From Candidatus Iainarchaeum sp. (GTDB lineage Archaea > Iainarchaeota > Iainarchaeia > Iainarchaeales > JAZDDZ01), in assembly GCA_043809245.1 (NCBI GenBank), contig JAZDDZ010000055.1:1-14248 (forward strand): 14,248 nucleotides of DNA, written 5' to 3'. Both the position numbers and the translations under genes were made by a program. The notes below the pieces were generated by a model. It ran no database searches. It was not told the origin of the DNA and saw nothing but the letters and a program-made list of their open reading frames with translations. Shown piece by piece: positions 971-12,738 of this stretch; position 1 is the first letter of the stretch, and each line of letters opens with the position of its first letter.

Positions 971-1261
971 ATGGTCTGCTATGCTATCCCCTTATCTTTG
1001 TCTGTAATCCTTTTCGCGCTTAGAAAGCGCGCCATCAAGGACAGCAGCGAGCTGCATTGGCTTAACCTGATGCTTAGCGGCGGCGCGGTAATGCTTGTAA
1101 TAGACCATTTCTGGAACGGCGAGCTATTCCTTATAGGGGAAAACCTTTTCTCAGACTTATTGCTTGGCGTGCTCATGACAGCAGGGGTTTTCGTGTTCTG
1201 GGGAATCATGATTGCGGCGGGAAAAGCAAAGGCACCGGCACCGGTGAAAGCAAAGGCTTGA
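971..1261 (+). CDS. Small hypothetical membrane protein (about 3 TM)
   Basis: GGTG SD at 961-964, three hydrophobic segments, a DHFWNGEL motif and a basic Ala/Lys/Pro tail. Confidence 0.8.
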   Translation: MVCYAIPLSLSVILFALRKRAIKDSSELHWLNLMLSGGAVMLVIDHFWNGELFLIGENLFSDLLLGVLMTAGVFVFWGIMIAAGKAKAPAPVKAKA

Positions 1262-1277
1262 ATTTCTTTGTTGCGGC

Positions 1278-1844
1278 TCATTTCCTTGAATAAACAGTGA
1301 AGTGCTGCTCCGGCAAAAAATCAAATTCCTTTTCAAGCGAATAGCCTGCCTGCTTCATTTCCTGCATAATTATCTTTTTCTTTACGCTGTGGCCGAACAA
1401 GCCATGGAAAGAAAAAAGGCCACGGGGTTTGTGCTCTATTACCGCTATTCTGCCATTGGATTTAAGGAAATTCCCCAGCTGCCTGAAATACTTTGCCCTT
1501 TCAGAGATGTGGTGTGTTGCATTTCGGATGAAAATCAGGTCAAGCAATTTTTCTGGAAGCCCCAATTTATTCTTTTCCGAGAGGACTATTGAAAGGTTCT
1601 TCAACCCTTTGCCTTCAGCGCTTTTTTTGATGAAATCCAAAAAGCTTTGGTTCACATCAACCGCGAAAACCTTTCCTTTTAAGCCGACTATTTCTGCGAA
1701 CCTCAAAGAAAAATATCCTCCGCCAGAACCAATGTCCGCAATGCTCTGCCCTTCCTTGAGGCCAAGCGCCTCAATTACCTTGTCAGGCTTGCTTTTCGGG
1801 CTTGCAGCCATTTCATTGAACATTTCCACCCGGGAGTTACTCAT
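1278..1844 (-). CDS. Class I SAM-dependent methyltransferase
   Basis: IADIGSGGGYF (motif I), VFAVDV, LDLIF and LKSNGRIAVIE. I prefer ATG 1844 over TTG 1859 because it overlaps the DUF134 stop and follows GGAGAGGGG. Confidence 0.9.
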   Translation of the reverse strand: MSNSRVEMFNEMAASPKSKPDKVIEALGLKEGQSIADIGSGGGYFSLRFAEIVGLKGKVFAVDVNQSFLDFIKKSAEGKGLKNLSIVLSEKNKLGLPEKLLDLIFIRNATHHISERAKYFRQLGNFLKSNGRIAVIEHKPRGLFSFHGLFGHSVKKKIIMQEMKQAGYSLEKEFDFLPEQHFTVYSRK

Positions 1845-2181
1845 TTGCCCCTCTCCCAAACCGCCTTCCGTGCCTTCCCCTGTGCCTTCCCACGAATTTA
1901 AAGCTGCCTCCTTCGATTCTCAGCGCCTTTCCGTTCACTATTGCGTCAACGATTTTTTTTCGCGCAGAGGAAAGCAGGCGGTGGAAGGTGGGCTGGGATA
2001 TGCCCATCTTTGAAGCGGCCTCTTCCTGTTCAAGGCCCTCCAAGTCATTCCACCTTACCGCCTCAAACTCTTCAACCGCAAGAATGCTTTCTTCCAGGTC
2101 AACCATTCTCACTCCCGCTGGCTTGAAGTAAGTTACACGCGGTTCCATTAGGACTTTCCTGAAAAGCCTTGGCCTTGGCAT
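1837..2181 (-). CDS. DUF134 (UPF0251) HTH DNA-binding protein
   Basis: MPRPR...YFKPAG, EEFEAVR, QEEAASKMGISQPTFHRLLSSARKKI and GKALRIEGG, with an Arg/Gly/His-rich tail. Confidence 0.92.
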   Translation of the reverse strand: MPRPRLFRKVLMEPRVTYFKPAGVRMVDLEESILAVEEFEAVRWNDLEGLEQEEAASKMGISQPTFHRLLSSARKKIVDAIVNGKALRIEGGSFKFVGRHRGRHGRRFGRGANE

Positions 2182-2190
2182 TTTTTTGCA

Positions 2191-2412
2191 CTATTCCCCG
2201 AGCTCCTTCAGCTCTTTCTCTATATCCTCTTTTTCCGCTTTCAGTATTTTAACCCTTTCCTCTTTGGAAAGCTCCAAAGGCATTCCCCTGAAGCCATATC
2301 CAAAGCCCCTTCCGCGGCCGCGCCTTAAAGCACGGCCTCTTCCGCATGAGCCAAAACCCCTTCCGGTAAAAGCACCGGCTCCCATAGGGCCGGTTCCATC
2401 ATTTCCAGGCAT
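2191..2412 (-). CDS. DUF5320-family protein
   Basis: MPGNDGTGPMGAG..TGRGFGSC, an RG-rich middle and a C-terminal coiled coil. SD AGGAGGTGA lies just upstream. Confidence 0.88.
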   Translation of the reverse strand: MPGNDGTGPMGAGAFTGRGFGSCGRGRALRRGRGRGFGYGFRGMPLELSKEERVKILKAEKEDIEKELKELGE

Positions 2413-2437
2413 AATAAATTCACCTCCTTTAATTCAG

Positions 2438-2512
2438 TCATTTGCAGGAACCCTTCTTCCTGCCTGTTTTTCGGCCCTTTCCATCAGGGCCTGTTCCGTC
2501 TTTATTGGGCAT
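2438..2512 (-). CDS. Unannotated 24-aa DUF5320-like peptide MPNKDGTGPDGKGRKTGRKKGSCK
   Basis: ATG at 2512, TGA at 2438-2440, SD AAGGAGG just upstream. Aligns without gaps to the N-terminus of the adjacent DUF5320 protein. Confidence 0.85.
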   Translation of the reverse strand: MPNKDGTGPDGKGRKTGRKKGSCK

Positions 2513-2526
2513 TTCCAAAGCCTCCT

Positions 2527-2581
2527 TTTTGAATTAATATTCAAAACCATATAATGAATAGGTATTCATAATGTTTAAAAA
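2527..2581 (-). promoter_or_regulatory. Promoter with two TGAAT-N4-ATTCA palindromes (putative operators)
   Basis: TTTTGAAT-TAAT-ATTCAAAA (2527-2546) and ATGAATA-GG-TATTCAT (2554-2569). TATA box TTTTTAAA on the minus strand at 2574-2581. Confidence 0.7.
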
Positions 2582-2605
2582 CCTTATGTCGGGAGAAAAC
2601 AGTTC

Positions 2606-2641
2606 AAAAACCACGTGAGCAGGCGTACTGCTTCCCGCACG
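2606..2641 (-). terminator. Possible stem-loop plus T-run after the EamA gene
   Basis: Minus strand reads CGTG-cggga-AGCAG-tacgc-CTGCT-CACG-tgg-TTTTT. Confidence 0.4.
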
Positions 2642-2656
2642 CAAAAGCATCCGGCT

Positions 2657-3559
2657 TTAACCCTTGTTTTTGTATTGAATCAGAATTCCGCTGACGATTA
2701 TAACAAGTGCCGCAATTGAGATGATTGAAATAGCCTCGTTGTTAAGAAGATATGTCCAGGCCAATGCCAGGAACGGGACGGCATATACCCCATTAGCCAT
2801 CCTGTGCGTGTGCCCGAGCTCAAGTGCCTTGAACCAGAATACAAATGCCAAGGAGTTCGCAAATCCACCCAAAAAAATTACTGCAGCTATTGTTTCAATT
2901 TTTGCTGGCAAAACAATTCCTCCAAGAAGATAAACCGCAACTATAACTGGAATCATTGACGAAAGATAGTAAACCAACATGCTTGTGTAGCTCTCGAAAT
3001 GCACTTTTTTTCCAAGCACAGAGAAAAGGCCGTAACAAACCGCGGCAGCGGCAGCAAGCATATAACCAAAAGTGTACTCGTTTGCAAAAGCCGCCAGATC
3101 CCCTTGGGTGAAGATCAATAATGCCCCAAAGAAACTGAGCAATATTGCAGTTATTGTTTTAAGATTGAATTTTTCTTTAAGCAGGAGGATGGAAAAAATT
3201 ACGACAAAAATAGGCCACAAGTAATTGATTATATTTGCCTGCCCTGCAGGGGCAAGCGTAAAGCTTTCATACAAAAATACATAGTATAAAAAGAGCCCTA
3301 AAACCCCCATGAAGAACATTTTAACATAATCGGATTTTTTGTATTCTAAGAAATGGTGCAATTTTTTTTGGATCAGAACAGCAAAAGAGAGGGAAATTAG
3401 CCCAACCAGATTTGCATAAAGAAGCAGCTGAAAATCATTTAGCTCGCCCAACGCAATCTTTGCAGCAGCAGGAGTGCCAGACCATAAAATAATAGTCAGC
3501 AAAAGATAGGCATAAGCCAATTTACTGTCCGACATAATTATCTTATTGAATTGAATCAT
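2657..3559 (-). CDS. EamA/DMT family transporter (about 10 TM)
   Basis: Two EamA repeats: ILWSG...AKIAL and NYLWPIFVVIFSILLLKEK, then CYGLFSVLGK and AFVFWFKAL. ATGA overlap with the decarboxylase stop. ATG 3535 is an alternative start. Confidence 0.92.
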   Translation of the reverse strand: MIQFNKIIMSDSKLAYAYLLLTIILWSGTPAAAKIALGELNDFQLLLYANLVGLISLSFAVLIQKKLHHFLEYKKSDYVKMFFMGVLGLFLYYVFLYESFTLAPAGQANIINYLWPIFVVIFSILLLKEKFNLKTITAILLSFFGALLIFTQGDLAAFANEYTFGYMLAAAAAVCYGLFSVLGKKVHFESYTSMLVYYLSSMIPVIVAVYLLGGIVLPAKIETIAAVIFLGGFANSLAFVFWFKALELGHTHRMANGVYAVPFLALAWTYLLNNEAISIISIAALVIIVSGILIQYKNKG

Positions 3560-4758
3560 TTATTAACGTGCACCACTTTCGCCGGCGGAAAGCCGTTGAA
3601 GTAGCTCGCAGAAGCCATTGTGTACGCGCCAATGTTTTCAGCGTAAACCAAGTCATGCAACTCTAAATCAGGCAGCTCTGCCTGCTGCGTGATTGTGTCA
3701 AAGGCGTCACAAGTCGGGCCAAAAACCGCGCTAATGTGCTTTTCGCCTTCCTTGAATGCGTGAATGGGGTAAATGCAGTGGTCGAATACCTGCCCTGAAA
3801 AAGTGTGGTATACTCCGTCGTTGATGTAATAACACGGCTTGCCGTCGCGGTTTGCCAAACCGATTACTTTTGCGACAAGCGTGCATGCGTTTGCGGCAAT
3901 GAACCTTCCGGGCTCTGCGAGAATCTCCATATCCTTGGGAAAAATCCTCCCTATTTCTGAATTAAGTTTTTTCGCAAGCGTGCGGAAAGACTTCACCTTT
4001 GAATTATATTTTACCGGGAAGCCTCCGCCGATGTCCAAAATCTTTATCCTCTGCCCTGCCCTTGTTTCAGCCTCTTTTATTATGTTCGCGGAAAGCTGCA
4101 GCGCCTGGACATAGTTTTCGAAATTAGTGCACTGGCTGCCAACGTGAAAGCTTAAGCCCTCAACAACAGCGCCTGAATCAAATGCCTCAACTATCAAATC
4201 AACTGCTTCACCCGGGTCTGCGCCGAACTTGGAGCTTAATTCAACCATCGAACCGGTGTTTGGCACGCGAATCCTTAACACAAGGCCTGCGTGCGGCGCA
4301 AACTGCCTTATTTTTTTCAGCTCTGCTGTGTTGTCAAACGTAACCAATGGCTTGAATTTGTCCAATGCCTGCAGAGTTTCAATCGGCTTAATCGTGTTCG
4401 CGTAAATTATTTTGTCCCAGATAAAGTCCTGCCTTTCCCTGTCAGGCAAATCCTTTATGTTCTCGTATACAAGCATGAATTCAGGCATTGAGGCAACGTC
4501 AAAGCTTGCGCCTTCCTTGTACAGTGTCCTAACAATCTCAGGGTCTGAATTGGCTTTCACCGCATAGTATGCCTGCACTTTCGGCAGGTTCTCTTTGAAT
4601 TCGCGGTAATTCCGCCTTATCTTTTCATGGTCGATTACAAAAATCGGCGTTCCATTTTGCCTTGCAAGTTCCTGTAAAAGAAATTTCTCTTTTTCATCAA
4701 TGTGCGGAACTCCATTAACCCTGACTTTTTTTTCCTCTTTCTGCCCTGCCTGCTCCAT
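3556..4758 (-). CDS. Fold-type III PLP-dependent ornithine (or lysine/ornithine) decarboxylase
   Basis: YAVKAN (PLP lysine), FDVAS, SKFG, FHVGSQ, DIGGGF, EPGRF, FDH specificity element, GPTCD, GAY and FNG. I prefer ATG 4758, which follows GGGGATG, over GTG 4812, which lies inside hss. Confidence 0.92.
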   Translation of the reverse strand: MEQAGQKEEKKVRVNGVPHIDEKEKFLLQELARQNGTPIFVIDHEKIRRNYREFKENLPKVQAYYAVKANSDPEIVRTLYKEGASFDVASMPEFMLVYENIKDLPDRERQDFIWDKIIYANTIKPIETLQALDKFKPLVTFDNTAELKKIRQFAPHAGLVLRIRVPNTGSMVELSSKFGADPGEAVDLIVEAFDSGAVVEGLSFHVGSQCTNFENYVQALQLSANIIKEAETRAGQRIKILDIGGGFPVKYNSKVKSFRTLAKKLNSEIGRIFPKDMEILAEPGRFIAANACTLVAKVIGLANRDGKPCYYINDGVYHTFSGQVFDHCIYPIHAFKEGEKHISAVFGPTCDAFDTITQQAELPDLELHDLVYAENIGAYTMASASYFNGFPPAKVVHVNK

Positions 4759-4778
4759 AACAATCATCCCCAAATTTT

Positions 4779-6224
4779 TCACGGTGTGAAAAGAAAGTTT
4801 TTGAACTGCCACACGTCCTTTTTGTCGGGCTTGCTCGCGGGATTTTCCTTGAAGTAAACCTTCCTGTTTCCAAGCGGAGTCCAGTCGCTTGGCTTTGAAA
4901 CAAACTCCCCCAAATATGGTTTTGAAATTTTTAAAACAAATTCATGCGGCAAATCATCCGGCAGGCAAAAGCCTTTCCTTGGGTTTTCAATTGCCCACAT
5001 CGCGGCGGCAATAACGCTGATTGCAACCTGAATCGTTGTCGCATTCTGCCCGGGCGCAAGTTTTCGCGATTCTTCAATCGTTAAAATGCTTCCAGCCCAC
5101 CAGGAATTGAATTCATGCCCCATCAAAAGCGCGCCTAAAATGTCAGCTCCGGAAGTGATTTCCTTGTCGTCCAGAATCCTGAGCTTTGGCTGCATTTCGT
5201 AATTCCTGCACCTGAGTTCATGCAGGGAGCTGATGGTTTCATCACAGGGCATGTAAGCGTAATGGACAGTGGGCCTGTAAATTGCCTTGCCGTTTTTCCA
5301 CACAGTCCAGCTGTCCGATAAGCCAAAGGCTTCTCCGTGCCTTATAACCATGCCCACAATCTCGTAGTCAGGCACCCAGGAGTGCACCCAGGTGTTTATT
5401 CCCATTTGCGCCAAAAAAATCTGGTTCTTCGGGCCCACAGGCGGATGATAAGCTAATGCGGGAAACTCTTTTTCATGCGTTCCCCAGCCCATTTCCGCTG
5501 GCGCTGTTCCCTCTTCCCTTAACCCTTCAATGCTCCATGTGCCGACAAATTCATTCACTTCTTTGGGCTTGTTGGTTATCTGCGTGTCCCTCTCCGAGCA
5601 ATGAATCACTTTAATGCCCAAATGCATTGCAAGCTCGCCGAACTTCTCCTCTTTGATGAGTTTCTCCAAAAGCGAGGGGTTTTTTGCCTTTTTTTCCTTA
5701 ATCAGTTTTCTTGCGATGTCAATTGCGCCCTGTTTTGCGAAGTGGGAGATTAAGCCGGGGTTTGCGCCGTGGTCAACAACAAAAGTTGTCGCGTTCTTCC
5801 AGTTTTTGCATAGCTCGCGCATCTTCATTTGCCTGAAGTAAAGCGATTTCTCGTAAGGTGAGGCATTGAACACGCCTTCCTTTGGGTCCCATTGTTCAAC
5901 GGAAGTGTTAACGTAAAGCACTTCATTGTCATGGCACCACTGCACTATGTCCCAGCACGCAATGTTCCAAGCCAAGTCAATGCATAATCCGCCTTTTTCA
6001 AGGTGCTGTGAAAGAATATCCGCCAAATTTTCCCGCGAAACCATTTGCTTGTGGTATTTTACGCCCTTTGAAATCCAGTGATTCAGTTCCTTGCTTTTGT
6101 CAGCAAAATCTATTACCGTAACGTTCTCAAACGGAACCTTTATGTGCTTGAACAGCAATGGCAGCGCGCACTTTGAGACAGCGCCATAGCCAATCATCAG
6201 GATTTTTTTATTGAAAGTATGCAC
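4779..6224 (-). CDS. hss: Homospermidine synthase
   Basis: Rossmann motif IGYGAV, YVNTSVEQW, HGANPGLISHF, HCSERDTQ, TWSIEGLREEG, AEMGWGTHE, YRPTVHYAY and NATTIQVA. Confidence 0.92.
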   Translation of the reverse strand: MHTFNKKILMIGYGAVSKCALPLLFKHIKVPFENVTVIDFADKSKELNHWISKGVKYHKQMVSRENLADILSQHLEKGGLCIDLAWNIACWDIVQWCHDNEVLYVNTSVEQWDPKEGVFNASPYEKSLYFRQMKMRELCKNWKNATTFVVDHGANPGLISHFAKQGAIDIARKLIKEKKAKNPSLLEKLIKEEKFGELAMHLGIKVIHCSERDTQITNKPKEVNEFVGTWSIEGLREEGTAPAEMGWGTHEKEFPALAYHPPVGPKNQIFLAQMGINTWVHSWVPDYEIVGMVIRHGEAFGLSDSWTVWKNGKAIYRPTVHYAYMPCDETISSLHELRCRNYEMQPKLRILDDKEITSGADILGALLMGHEFNSWWAGSILTIEESRKLAPGQNATTIQVAISVIAAAMWAIENPRKGFCLPDDLPHEFVLKISKPYLGEFVSKPSDWTPLGNRKVYFKENPASKPDKKDVWQFKNFLFTP

Positions 6225-7827: not shown

Positions 7828-8568
7828 TCAGGCGCCGACGAGAATTTTTATTGAAACCATGAACGCTATTCCCGCGAGGAAGAAGGCAAAGGAGCCAAAG
7901 TATTTTTTGAAGCTTTTTTCCTTGTGCAGCTGGGGTATTAGGTCACTTGCGCCAATGTAAATGAATCCCCCCGCTGCAAAAGGCAGTAGCAGCGGGACTA
8001 TTCCCGTGCCGCCGATAAAGAAAAAGCCGAGTATTCCGCCTAAAATGCTTGCCATCTGCGCGACAAAATTATAGAAAAGCGCTTTTTTCCTTTCCATTCC
8101 CCCGAAAACCATTACCCCGAAATCGCCGAGCTCCTGCGGAAGCTCATGGCCGATTATTATCAGCGTGGTTACTATTCCAAAGCCGCTGTTTACCAGAAAA
8201 CTTGCGGCAATGACTAACCCGTCAATGAAGTTATGCATTGCGTCGCCGAAAAGAATCATGTAAGAGAAAGCATGCACGTCGCATTTGCCTTCATGGCAGT
8301 GATGCCAGTAGAGAAATCTTTCAAGCAGAAAGAAAACAATGAATCCAACGAAAAGATAAGCGAATGCCTCCATTACAGGCAGCTGCTCAAGCGATTCCGC
8401 GAGCAAGTGAAAGAATGCTCCGCTCAAGAGTGCTCCTGCGGAAAAGCCGACAAGCGCAAGAAGGATGCTTTCAAGCTTTTCCTTTGAAATGAATAAGGAG
8501 AATGCGCCGACAAATGCCACAAGGCTGTTTGCAATAGTTGCGGCCAGAATCCATAAAAGTGCATCCAT
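7828..8568 (-). CDS. ZIP family divalent metal (Zn/Fe) transporter
   Basis: FSAGALL, His-rich loop HHCHEGKCDVH, HNFIDG, HELPQELGDF and AGGFIYIGASDLIP. Confidence 0.95.
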   Translation of the reverse strand: MDALLWILAATIANSLVAFVGAFSLFISKEKLESILLALVGFSAGALLSGAFFHLLAESLEQLPVMEAFAYLFVGFIVFFLLERFLYWHHCHEGKCDVHAFSYMILFGDAMHNFIDGLVIAASFLVNSGFGIVTTLIIIGHELPQELGDFGVMVFGGMERKKALFYNFVAQMASILGGILGFFFIGGTGIVPLLLPFAAGGFIYIGASDLIPQLHKEKSFKKYFGSFAFFLAGIAFMVSIKILVGA

Positions 8569-11204: not shown

Positions 11205-11795
11205 TCAGCACCCGGCCTCTATTTCGTTTTTCAGGTCCTCAGCGGTTTTAACCCCGTTTCTGAGGAATCTCGCAGACTGGTCTTCGCACACCAGAATTAC
11301 AGGCGCGCTCGGCGCGTTAACCACTGTCAATCCAAACTCGCTTATGAGCGCCTGGGTCATTTCAGCCGGTGAAACAGCATAATGCCAGCCAAAGCCATTT
11401 CTTGCAATGTGTTCCCTGACTCTTGCAGTGTCTTCATTGGGGTCAGTGTCAACCGATACTGCAACAAAGGAATCCCCTTCGGAGTCCTTGAGTTTTTTAA
11501 TCTCTTTCTGTTGTTCAAGGCACACAGGGCACCACACCGCAAAGCTTTCCAGCACAACTGCTTTTCCCGTGAAATCTGAAACCTTAAAACTGTTTCCCGT
11601 GCCAATATCGGTTAGTGAAATGCTTTTCCATCCGGCAGTTTCAGAGGAAGGCAAAGAGTTTGCAACTGTTCCCTGATTGGCATCAGCGTCAGATAAAGCA
11701 GAGGGCTGCGCGGAAGGCGTTGTATCAACCGATGAAATGCAGCCTGCAAGCAACAAAAAAGCCAAAAAAAATGCCGCAAAAACAAATTTTTCCAT
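11205..11795 (-). CDS. TlpA/thioredoxin-like lipoprotein
   Basis: Lipobox LLAGC, a Ser/Thr/Pro linker, then GKAVVLESFAVWCPVC and VSVDTDPNE. Confidence 0.9.
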   Translation of the reverse strand: MEKFVFAAFFLAFLLLAGCISSVDTTPSAQPSALSDADANQGTVANSLPSSETAGWKSISLTDIGTGNSFKVSDFTGKAVVLESFAVWCPVCLEQQKEIKKLKDSEGDSFVAVSVDTDPNEDTARVREHIARNGFGWHYAVSPAEMTQALISEFGLTVVNAPSAPVILVCEDQSARFLRNGVKTAEDLKNEIEAGC

Positions 11796-11826: not shown

Positions 11827-12444
11827 CTATTTCAGCAGCTTCTCCAGCCTTTCGCCTGCTTCCTTCCAGTTTGCAACGCTCCAGAAGCATTCAATGAATT
11901 TTCCGCGGTCGTTTTTGTAGTCAAGGTAGTAGGCGTGCTCGAAAACGTCCAGCACCAAGAGAATCTTGAATGAAGGATAAACATTTGTGTTGTGCTTTTC
12001 TATCTGCATTATAATTGGCCTGTTTGTTTTCATGCAGTAACTTAGCGCAGCCCAGCCGGAGCCCTCGGCGCTTGCAGCCGCCTTCGTGAATTCGCTTTTG
12101 AACCTTTCAAAGGAACCGAATTCCTTGCTGATTTCTTCCGCTAATTTGCCTTCAGGTGTTCCGCCTCCGCCTTTTCCCGCGGGAGCCATGTTCTCCCAGA
12201 AAAGAGAGTGAAGAATGTGCCCGCCGATTTGGAAGGAAAGGTCTTTGAGAGTTGCCTTCATGTCCAAGTCAGCGCCTTCTTGCCTTGCCTTGTCAAGTTT
12301 TTCAAGAATTGCATTCGCGCCCTTCACATAGGCTGCGTGGTGTTTTTCATAGTGAATCTGCAATTGCTGTTCGGAAATGAACGGCGCAAGGCCAGCGTAA
12401 TTGTAAGGCAGTTTCGGCTGCGAGTAAAATTTTTTTTCATCCAT
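11827..12444 (-). CDS. sod: Fe/Mn superoxide dismutase
   Basis: LPYNYAGLAP, HYEKHHAAYV, GGHILHSLFW, GSGWAAL, EKHN and DVFEHAYY. ATG 12444 follows GGGGG; TTG 12450 is an alternative. Confidence 0.96.
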   Translation of the reverse strand: MDEKKFYSQPKLPYNYAGLAPFISEQQLQIHYEKHHAAYVKGANAILEKLDKARQEGADLDMKATLKDLSFQIGGHILHSLFWENMAPAGKGGGGTPEGKLAEEISKEFGSFERFKSEFTKAAASAEGSGWAALSYCMKTNRPIIMQIEKHNTNVYPSFKILLVLDVFEHAYYLDYKNDRGKFIECFWSVANWKEAGERLEKLLK

Positions 12445-12456
12445 GAACAAACCCCC

Positions 12457-12738
12457 TTATTTTTTCAGCTCTTCAACTTCTTCTTTTCCGTGAGCCAGCT
12501 CTTTTTCCTGTTCCTTGTCAAGTTCAAGCAAAAGCGCCTGGAATTCGCCCACATGGGTTTTCTCTTCCTTCGCTATGTCCACCAGAACCTTTTTTATGTT
12601 CTCATTTTCAGCCATTGCCGCCAGCTGCTCGTAAAGGCTCACAGCATCAAGCTCCGCGATTATTCCAACCCTTAGAATCTCCTTGTCTATCTGGCCCTTG
12701 CTCAGGTTCTCCAACTTTTGGGGAATTTGTGACATCAT
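12457..12738 (-). CDS. Short ferritin-like protein (EncFtn/Flp-type half-ferritin)
   Basis: IIAELDAVSLYEQ...DIAKEEKTHVGEF, two helices with an ExxH di-iron motif. SD GAGGTGG. Confidence 0.88.
   Translation of the reverse strand: MMSQIPQKLENLSKGQIDKEILRVGIIAELDAVSLYEQLAAMAENENIKKVLVDIAKEEKTHVGEFQALLLELDKEQEKELAHGKEEVEELKK

Follow-up and report, generated by a model that had tools for sequence, protein, structure and literature searches.

The DUF5320 family comprises small proteins, so far uncharacterised, from anaerobic archaea and bacteria. DUF5320 and the helix-turn-helix family DUF134 are both widespread in these organisms, and we know of no function for either. The literature that names DUF5320 was off-topic, as far as titles and the openings of abstracts indicate. 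Results for "DUF134" were mostly false matches to DUF134x names (PMC10434189 mentions DUF1349 instead). A fixed 24-residue stand-alone form of DUF5320, encoded beside a full-length paralogue, is not described in the literature searched.

Small proteins of other kinds offer points of comparison. Eukaryotic microProteins are small single-domain paralogues that titrate larger relatives. FbpA, FbpB, and FbpC of Bacillus subtilis are Fur-regulated small basic proteins whose action is believed to involve a small RNA. Fusions of DUF134 to a NifX-like domain are named [quoted passage not shown] in one source. According to excerpts of its description, IssA of Pyrococcus furiosus joins a NifX-like domain to a cationic, Gly-rich tail that holds the only Cys of the protein, and serves as a thioferrate store (PMC5524996). 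The same excerpts propose that this tail, which is rich in aromatic residues, binds or wraps the anionic thioferrate (PMC5524996).

The locus described here lies in the window, defined as the whole 14,248-nucleotide stretch of DNA that was analysed (Candidatus Iainarchaeum sp.). It encodes a micro-protein of 24 residues, a full-length DUF5320 paralogue, and a DUF134 protein (Table 1). The micro-protein contains the DUF5320 N-terminal motif MPxxDGTGPxGxGxxTGRxxGxC (N-motif), aligned without gaps and with the Cys at position 23. With DUF5320 (PF17253) it shares profile positions 1–24, the invariant residues M1, P2, G8, P9, G13, G17, G21, and C23, and the linkage to DUF134. Unlike a canonical DUF5320 protein, it has no linker or coiled-coil helix, is lysine-rich, and co-exists with a canonical member in its operon. 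As in the eukaryotic microProteins, a single module of a larger multi-part protein survives in a very small paralogue; the differences are that the micro-protein is prokaryotic, that its gene lies beside that of its paralogue in one operon, and that the part retained is the head motif, not the oligomerisation helix. Like FbpA/B/C it is very small and highly basic, and the Fbp promoter is under a repressor linked to metal homeostasis; the regulator, however, is of a different family, and we know of no sequence relation between the micro-protein and FbpA/B/C.

The cassette regulator has the same DNA-binding domain as the DUF134-NifX-like fusions, and in two fusions an N-motif links the domains. 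In the window, however, the parts are separate genes with no NifX-like domain, and the N-motifs of the fusions lack Cys23. By the excerpted description of the IssA tail, the micro-protein shares with it a cationic, Gly-rich, presumably disordered segment in which there is one Cys. Some NifX-like domains also have a relative of the motif fused at their C-terminal end, an architecture that resembles IssA. The micro-protein differs from IssA in having neither a NifX-like domain nor an aromatic or Pro-rich segment. Its likeness to the tail is drawn from that description.

Table 1. Positions of the micro-protein gene, its upstream elements, and the downstream genes in the window.
Feature	Position	Strand	Basis and remarks
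TATA-box-like TTTTTAAAC (putative archaeal promoter)	2573..2581	minus	Sequence; same place before O1 in relatives
Operator-like palindrome O1, ATTATGAATA-CC-TATTCATTAT	2551..2572	minus	Core TGAATN4ATTCA at 2555-2568, TGAATACCTATTCA; directly downstream of the TATA-like box
Operator-like palindrome O2, TTTTGAAT-ATTA-ATTCAAAA	2527..2546	minus	Core TGAATN4ATTCA at 2530-2543, TGAATATTAATTCA; in the predicted 5' leader
Shine-Dalgarno-like site AAAAGGAGG	2521..2529	minus	GGAGG end 8 nt before the micro-ORF ATG; GGAGG-type site at the same place in most relatives
Micro-protein gene, 24 codons and TGA stop	2438..2512	minus	DUF5320 N-terminal motif alone; Pfam match, 15 genomes with a 24-codon ORF ending in CK, coding-type substitutions
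Full-length DUF5320 paralogue, 73 aa	2191..2412	minus	Pfam 39.4 bits, positions 1-92; own GGAGG at 2427-2423
DUF134 (UPF0251) helix-turn-helix protein, 114 aa, no cysteine	1837..2181	minus	Pfam 99.2 bits
SAM-dependent methyltransferase	1278..1859	minus	Pfam; overlaps the DUF134 end by 23 nt

The ORF of the micro-protein (micro-ORF) runs on the minus strand from an ATG at 2512–2510 to a TGA at 2440–2438. Its 24-residue product is MPNKDGTGPDGKGRKTGRKKGSCK, in which M1, P2, D5, T7, G8, P9, G11, K12, G13, T16, G17, R18, G21, and C23 are the conserved positions. The 24-mer has eight K/R against two D for a net charge of about +6, with seven Gly, one Cys, and no aromatic residues. The Arg/Gly-rich linker and C-terminal coiled-coil helix of DUF5320 (profile positions ~25–99) are absent from it, as the ORF ends at residue 24. 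An in-frame TTG at 2518, two codons upstream of the ATG, is an alternative start that would give a 26-aa product. The micro-ORFs of relatives all begin at the ATG, with equal spacing from the GGAGG site.

The Pfam DUF5320 profile matches the micro-protein over positions 1–24 of 99 with 30.9 bits (gathering score, 27 bits) and an E-value of 6.2e-7. A 23-position motif profile run against the host genome finds the micro-ORF with a genome-wide E-value of 2.9e-11. Across 15 aligned N-motif sequences, M1, P2, T7, G8, P9, G13, G17, G21, and C23 are invariant. The heads of the micro-protein and of the 73-aa paralogue align ungapped with 15 of 23 residues identical (65%). Eight of the 15 shared residues differ in codon: P2 (CCC/CCT), D5 (GAC/GAT), T7 (ACA/ACC), G13 (GGC/GGT), T16 (ACA/ACC), G17 (GGC/GGA), G21 (GGT/GGC), and S22 (TCC/TCA). 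The initial annotation of the window had pointed to this gap-free alignment with the N-terminus of the next gene and to the different codons for shared residues. It had also noted a strong Shine-Dalgarno site and a stop one residue after the Cys. All four observations hold, the site being the GGAGG within AAAAGGAGG and Cys23 being followed by residue 24 and then the TGA.

The 24-codon ORF is very probably a real, translated gene. Its product is the DUF5320 N-terminal module in minimal, stand-alone form: approximately 20 residues (DGTGPxGxGxxTGRxxGxC), rich in Gly and with an invariant Cys. It is a member of a lysine-rich DUF5320 subtype with the consensus MPNxDGTGPEGKGPKTGRKKGxCK.

The motif profile was run over 196 genomes of the same archaeal order and gave an N-motif match in 67 of them. 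ORFs were read at every locus with a short open frame beside a longer match, or with a frame of at most 39 codons. A micro-ORF of 24–35 codons is present in 22 of the 196 genomes, from nine families; the genomes counted are related, so these counts are not of independent events. The micro-ORF is exactly 24 codons in length and ends in CK-stop in 15 of the 22 genomes (five families). The other seven are 27, 28, 30, 31, 32, 32, and 35 codons in length. All 22 start with ATG, and a GGAGG-type site precedes most of them. M1, P2, G8, P9, G13, G17, G21, and C23 are invariant in this set.

A longer DUF5320 paralogue is adjacent at 21 of the 22 loci. The micro-ORF lies directly upstream of it in 20 and directly downstream in one (L050, genome G132). 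The remaining locus (L057) lacks a long paralogue, and its micro-ORF of 32 aa immediately precedes DUF134. DUF134 lies downstream at 20 of the 22 loci, including the window (exceptions, L007 and L043). The genes past DUF134 differ between loci and include CDF, TrkH, P-type ATPase, ArsP, DsbD-like/redoxin, and NifX-like genes. By gene order, the micro-protein, the longer DUF5320, and DUF134 form a conserved cassette with the micro-protein as its first cistron.

Relatives also have longer forms, of 27–35 aa and of 42–63 aa or more. Five genomes of the order have a single N-motif match each, in a short open frame of 39–59 codons from stop to stop. Three of these five ORFs were read and are 32, 44, and 45 aa in length; one of the genomes (G002) is a single contig and 94% complete. 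A class-level search of 19 further genomes added one genome with matches.

The pattern of variation among the 15 ORFs of 24 codons is of the coding type. At codon positions 1, 2, and 3, the number of variable sites is 10, 11, and 22 of 24, and the summed entropy is 5.0, 6.8, and 19.5, respectively. Pooled pS is 0.47 and pN is 0.118, for a pN/pS of 0.25; differences in GC content between genomes inflate the third-position differences behind these values, and the sequences are only 72 nt in length. Inside genera, pN/pS is 0.44 (five sequences) and 0.16 (four sequences). The window ORF and its nearest nucleotide relative (L046) have about equal values (pS 0.20, pN 0.18), which places the constraint mainly on the invariant positions. 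Frame, length, start, and stop are kept in 15 genomes, and a decaying copy is therefore ruled out. The initial annotation had suggested selection on the protein rather than a decaying copy, and had proposed a dN/dS-type comparison; a longer ORF in relatives, or a lack of conservation, was to count against its reading. The suggestion stands on the third-position bias, the pN/pS of 0.25 over the 15 ORFs, and the fixed length. The refuting condition does not hold, as relatives keep the same short ORF, in 15 genomes at exactly 24 codons.

Upstream of the window micro-ORF, the elements follow in the order TATA-like box, O1, O2, and GGAGG site. Relatives have a TATA-like box, TTATGAATatatATTCATTA, then usually a second copy, and then the micro-ORF. 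Their TATA-like boxes before O1 read TTTAAAA, TTTATAAA, or TTTAAATA. At least one exact TGAATN4ATTCA is present within 130 nt upstream at 20 of the 22 loci, and two are present at 12, always after a TATA-like box. The two loci with no exact palindrome (L007 and L050) both have a micro-ORF that is not the first gene. The position of the window gene as first in its operon, an early claim as well, is upheld in that the micro-ORF is the first cistron behind the TATA-like box and the palindromes.

The 1.48-Mb host genome contains seven TGAATN4ATTCA sites, compared with one for a control pattern. Two of the seven are those before the micro-ORF. Four of the other five are intragenic, and one (locus L036) follows a TATA-like run. 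The L036 site (1501–1514; G000:C15:7427–7440) comes after the run TTTTATATAT and just upstream of a 187-aa ORF. Sequence and placement suggest that the cassette regulator may act here too.

The host genome (G000) consists of 55 contigs, is 91.8% complete, and contains an archaeal 16S rRNA gene (1418 bits). The genomes of relatives are 0.5–1.5 Mb in size. The host is a DPANN archaeon. Two N-motif genes and one DUF134 copy were detected in its genome. The 73-aa paralogue begins 25 nt past the micro-ORF stop and is composed of the N-motif, an Arg/Gly-rich linker, and a C-terminal helix. AlphaFold2 models it with a mean pLDDT of 57.6 and residues 50–72 as the sole predicted helix, and the N-motif is predicted to be unstructured alone.

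The helix-turn-helix of DUF134 resembles sigma-70 region 4. Sequence searches of the PDB with DUF134 and with a long DUF5320 gave only weak matches to sigma-factor region 4 and generic coiled coils. The DUF134 protein of the window ends in an Arg/Gly-rich C-terminal tail (VGRHRGRHGRRFGRGANE, window 1840–1893, minus) that is similar in character to the linker of long DUF5320 proteins. Similar tails are found on the DUF134 proteins of loci L057 and L014.

The methyltransferase gene is probably co-transcribed with the cassette. It is probably not part of the DUF5320/DUF134 system, because a methyltransferase is found near the cassette at only two of the 22 loci (the window and L007). At L007 it sits upstream of the cassette. 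An EamA transporter gene lies upstream of the window cassette. The NifX-like domain (PF02579/IPR003731) is absent from the micro-protein and has no match in the host genome at its 91.8% completeness, so any cluster-carrier partner of this kind is missing here. No sequencing runs containing window positions 1300–3300 are listed, RNA included.

Several other features of the region were recorded. Genes for a ZIP transporter (7828–8568), a redoxin (11205–11795), an Fe/Mn superoxide dismutase (11827–12450), and an EncFtn-like/rubrerythrin protein (12457–12738) are found on the minus strand of the window. At locus L043, ZIP transporter and EncFtn-like genes directly flank the micro/long DUF5320 pair. 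Two antisense ORFs of approximately 100 aa each overlap at 979–1281 (minus) and 971–1261 (plus) and have no family match. The minus ORF seems to be of low complexity and has a 4-nt overlap with the stop of the methyltransferase gene. At 3556–6224 (minus), saccharopine-dehydrogenase-like and Orn/DAP/Arg-decarboxylase-like genes (Pfam) overlap, a pair that we take to be typical of carboxy(nor)spermidine polyamine synthesis.

A scan of the genomes of 185,579 species was made with one peptide pattern of the basic subtype. Such a search for short motif ORFs had been proposed in the initial annotation, and it returned 43 loci, 13 of which duplicate loci already in the set. The remainder are from many bacterial phyla and other archaea and are basic short forms of 25–124 aa. 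A DUF134 gene is no more than 1.5 kb away at 26 of the 43 loci, and none is found within that distance at the other 17.

Locus L081 (570–647, plus), from a metagenome-assembled genome (MAG) titled Crenarchaeota archaeon, encodes a 25-aa micro form ending in CPK. It has no DUF134 or long DUF5320 within 1.5 kb, and its sole nearby gene is ARMT1-like. Locus L062 (661–3067, plus), from a Spirochaetia MAG, contains in one run DUF134, a NifX-like gene, a 33-aa basic micro form, DUF5320 genes of 68 and 113 aa, a second NifX-like gene, and a MinD/ParA-ferredoxin ATPase. Three N-motif genes of rising length are thus found in an ORP-like Fe-S gene set.

A profile of the micro-proteins matched 3,164 representative proteins at E ≤ 0.001 among 1.84 billion. 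A homologue search with a 44-aa relative (L012) gave three matches only. Among the best 150 of the 3,164 profile matches, 68 are at most 60 aa in length, 33 have two motif copies, and eight end within three residues of the Cys of the last motif. Three of these 150 (P0043, P0046, and P0153) are ORFs of 24 or 25 aa annotated with wrongly extended upstream starts. P0004, P0005, P0006, P0008, and P0110 are small proteins with two tandem copies of the motif, the second of which begins R/K-x-DGTGP without the Met-Pro. P0110 has a hydrophobic, signal-peptide-like N-terminus ahead of its two copies.

The N-motif is also fused to other domains. It is joined to a 2x[4Fe-4S] ferredoxin at two Elusimicrobia loci (L071, 1706–1963, plus; L099, 1501–1758, plus), each preceded by a basic short form of 51–59 aa. 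A zinc ribbon of the form CxCxxCG...CPxCG is found on the N-motif (L086, 1524–1748, plus; L049, 457–648, minus) and on DUF134 (L055, 1311–1715, plus), with BLASTP E-values of 2e-7 and 9e-7 for the likeness between ribbons. A NifX-like domain is fused to a full DUF5320 in six of nine long DUF5320 matches. Among the long DUF134 proteins listed, 118 of 120 are DUF134-NifX-like fusions. P0180 and P0230 combine DUF134, the N-motif, and a NifX-like domain, and P0273 combines DUF134 with a degenerate DUF5320. Cys23 is missing from the N-motif of the DUF134-NifX fusions and of the zinc-ribbon fusions, so the motif can fill some of its roles without the cysteine.

The N-motif of approximately 20 residues is thus modular. 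It can stand alone, be repeated in tandem, or be joined to a ferredoxin, zinc-ribbon, NifX-like, or DUF134 domain. The early proposal that MPxxDGTGP...C is an autonomous functional unit is well supported by the stand-alone 24-codon ORF in five families, the tandem repeats, and the fusions to unrelated domains. Metal or sulfur binding by the micro-protein is plausible from the domain fusions and gene contexts.

On balance, we favour the reading that the micro-protein serves the DUF134 regulator as a separately encoded module, for sensing or as a partner, and may bind a metal-sulfur species via Cys23. Chief among the rival readings is that it competes with or caps the long paralogue, a possibility raised by the nearly constant presence of such a paralogue beside the micro-ORF. 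The micro-protein would then act as a dominant negative, a target-binding head with no linker or helix, adjusting the activity of the long paralogue by competing for its ligand or partner or by capping its assemblies. It is in fact a small single-module paralogue of a larger multi-module protein (24 vs. 73 aa, 65% identical over the shared module), 21 of the 22 micro-ORFs adjoin the longer gene, and the predicted C-terminal helix of the long form is absent from the short one. The heads also differ systematically: the micro form has K12, K15, K19–20, and K22, where the long form has hydrophobic residues, M15, and Y/P22. However, the partner is itself short and helix-less at L048 (24 + 63 aa) and L044 (24 + 42 aa), the 32-aa form of L057 immediately precedes DUF134 in the absence of a long paralogue, and in five genomes of the order no N-motif protein other than a basic short form was found. 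Exact conservation of length with a CK end is also not needed by a competitor, and we consider this role unlikely. Regulator-independent polyanion binding ranks next and is likewise doubtful. The peptide would be a cationic chaperone or store for an anionic metal-sulfide or a nucleic acid, and would merely be co-regulated with DUF134. Consistent with such a role are its composition (net charge ~+6, seven Gly, and one Cys in 24 residues), the NifX-like + DUF5320 fusions, the 33-aa basic form inside the Spirochaetia operon of DUF134, NifX, NifX, and MinD/Fer4, the lack of a nearby DUF134 at 17 of 43 loci of other lineages, and the tail model in the IssA excerpts (PMC5524996). Against it, the host genome has no NifX-like protein, the cassette in the order is minimal (two N-motif proteins and the regulator, followed by varied genes), and DUF134 + N-motif fusions exist.

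The other explanations are far less probable. A cis-acting leader peptide (uORF), whose translation would control the downstream DUF5320/DUF134 genes while the peptide has no function in trans, would fit an ORF that is first in its operon, very short, rich in Lys and Gly codons, and 25 nt before the next gene. The micro-protein is, however, homologous to a module found in many proteins, with amino-acid conservation across families and domains of life and recurrence, fusions and repeats included, in 3,164 representative proteins (E ≤ 0.001). The downstream gene has a strong GGAGG of its own, the hairpin inside the ORF (2444–2463) has no counterpart in the ORFs of relatives as judged by eye, and the micro-ORF follows the long gene in G132 (L050). 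On the module homology and the separate GGAGG, a leader peptide was rejected as very improbable. A RiPP-like precursor of a modified peptide, or a substrate of the neighbouring methyltransferase, is if anything less credible. The peptide is short and contains Gly and Cys, and a SAM methyltransferase gene overlaps the end of DUF134 in the window; modification of the peptide had been suggested early on. Across the 22 loci, however, radical-SAM, YcaO, lanthipeptide-type, and protease/exporter genes do not recur, only two loci have a methyltransferase close to the cassette, and no leader/core split can be drawn, the whole peptide being the conserved motif. With no conserved modifying enzyme at these loci, the suggestion was dropped and the candidate rejected. 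The least probable explanation is that the ORF arose by chance or is a partial copy of the next gene in decay, for which the tandem arrangement with the paralogue and the near equality of pN and pS against the nearest nucleotide relative could be cited. The same length and end in 15 genomes of five families, each with a GGAGG-type site, and the third-position-biased variation stand against this, as does the genome-wide E-value of 2.9e-11 against chance. Together, the E-value, the conservation in 15 genomes, and the substitution pattern effectively refute it.

For the micro-protein as a sensing or partner module of DUF134, the steps can be set out as follows. DUF134 would bind the TGAATN4ATTCA palindromes and autoregulate the operon. 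The N-motif proteins would supply the signal-sensing or partner function, as the fused NifX-like cluster-binding domain would in other lineages. They are the likeliest input for DUF134 because the protein has neither a sensor domain nor a cysteine here, and elsewhere, when long, is usually fused to a NifX-like domain and sometimes to the N-motif. Whether the micro-protein acts in one system with DUF134 is, to us, an even call on the genomic evidence, and Cys-ligated metal-sulfur sensing is a more tentative proposal that we rate as rather improbable. Most speculatively, the cationic disordered peptide might fold on an anionic metal-sulfur species or on the DUF134-DNA complex with Cys23 as ligand. 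Cys23 of the longer coiled-coil paralogue may join as a ligand, and repression would change. A complex prediction for DUF134 and the 24-mer scored 0.00; a partner of fewer than 30 residues is outside the calibration of the tool, and the score is evidence neither way. We favour a Cys23-dependent, ligand-induced association of the micro-protein with DUF134, the longer paralogue, or both. This mechanism is held loosely, because the host has no NifX-like partner and the fused motifs have no Cys23.

Several families of archaea with reduced genomes have retained a DUF5320 cut down to its first 24 residues, and this piece marks out the functional core of DUF5320. The 24-mer can be synthesised chemically and, with a C23S variant, is a reagent for probing DUF5320 function. 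Genes of this size are easily missed; among the best 150 profile matches, library equivalents are present only with wrongly extended starts (P0043, P0046, and P0153). In its fullest form, the favoured reading would make DGTGPxGxGxxTGRxxGxC a self-sufficient, previously unrecognised module for binding anionic metal-sulfur species, and, together with the long form, a Cys23-bridged cluster or metal would switch a sensor-less DUF134 repressor on its TGAATN4ATTCA operators. We hold this full form to be unlikely. If true, no transcription factor would be known to have a smaller signal-sensing subunit than the free 24-mer, and a three-part sensor of Fe-S, sulfide, or metal would be common to DPANN archaea and many anaerobic bacteria.
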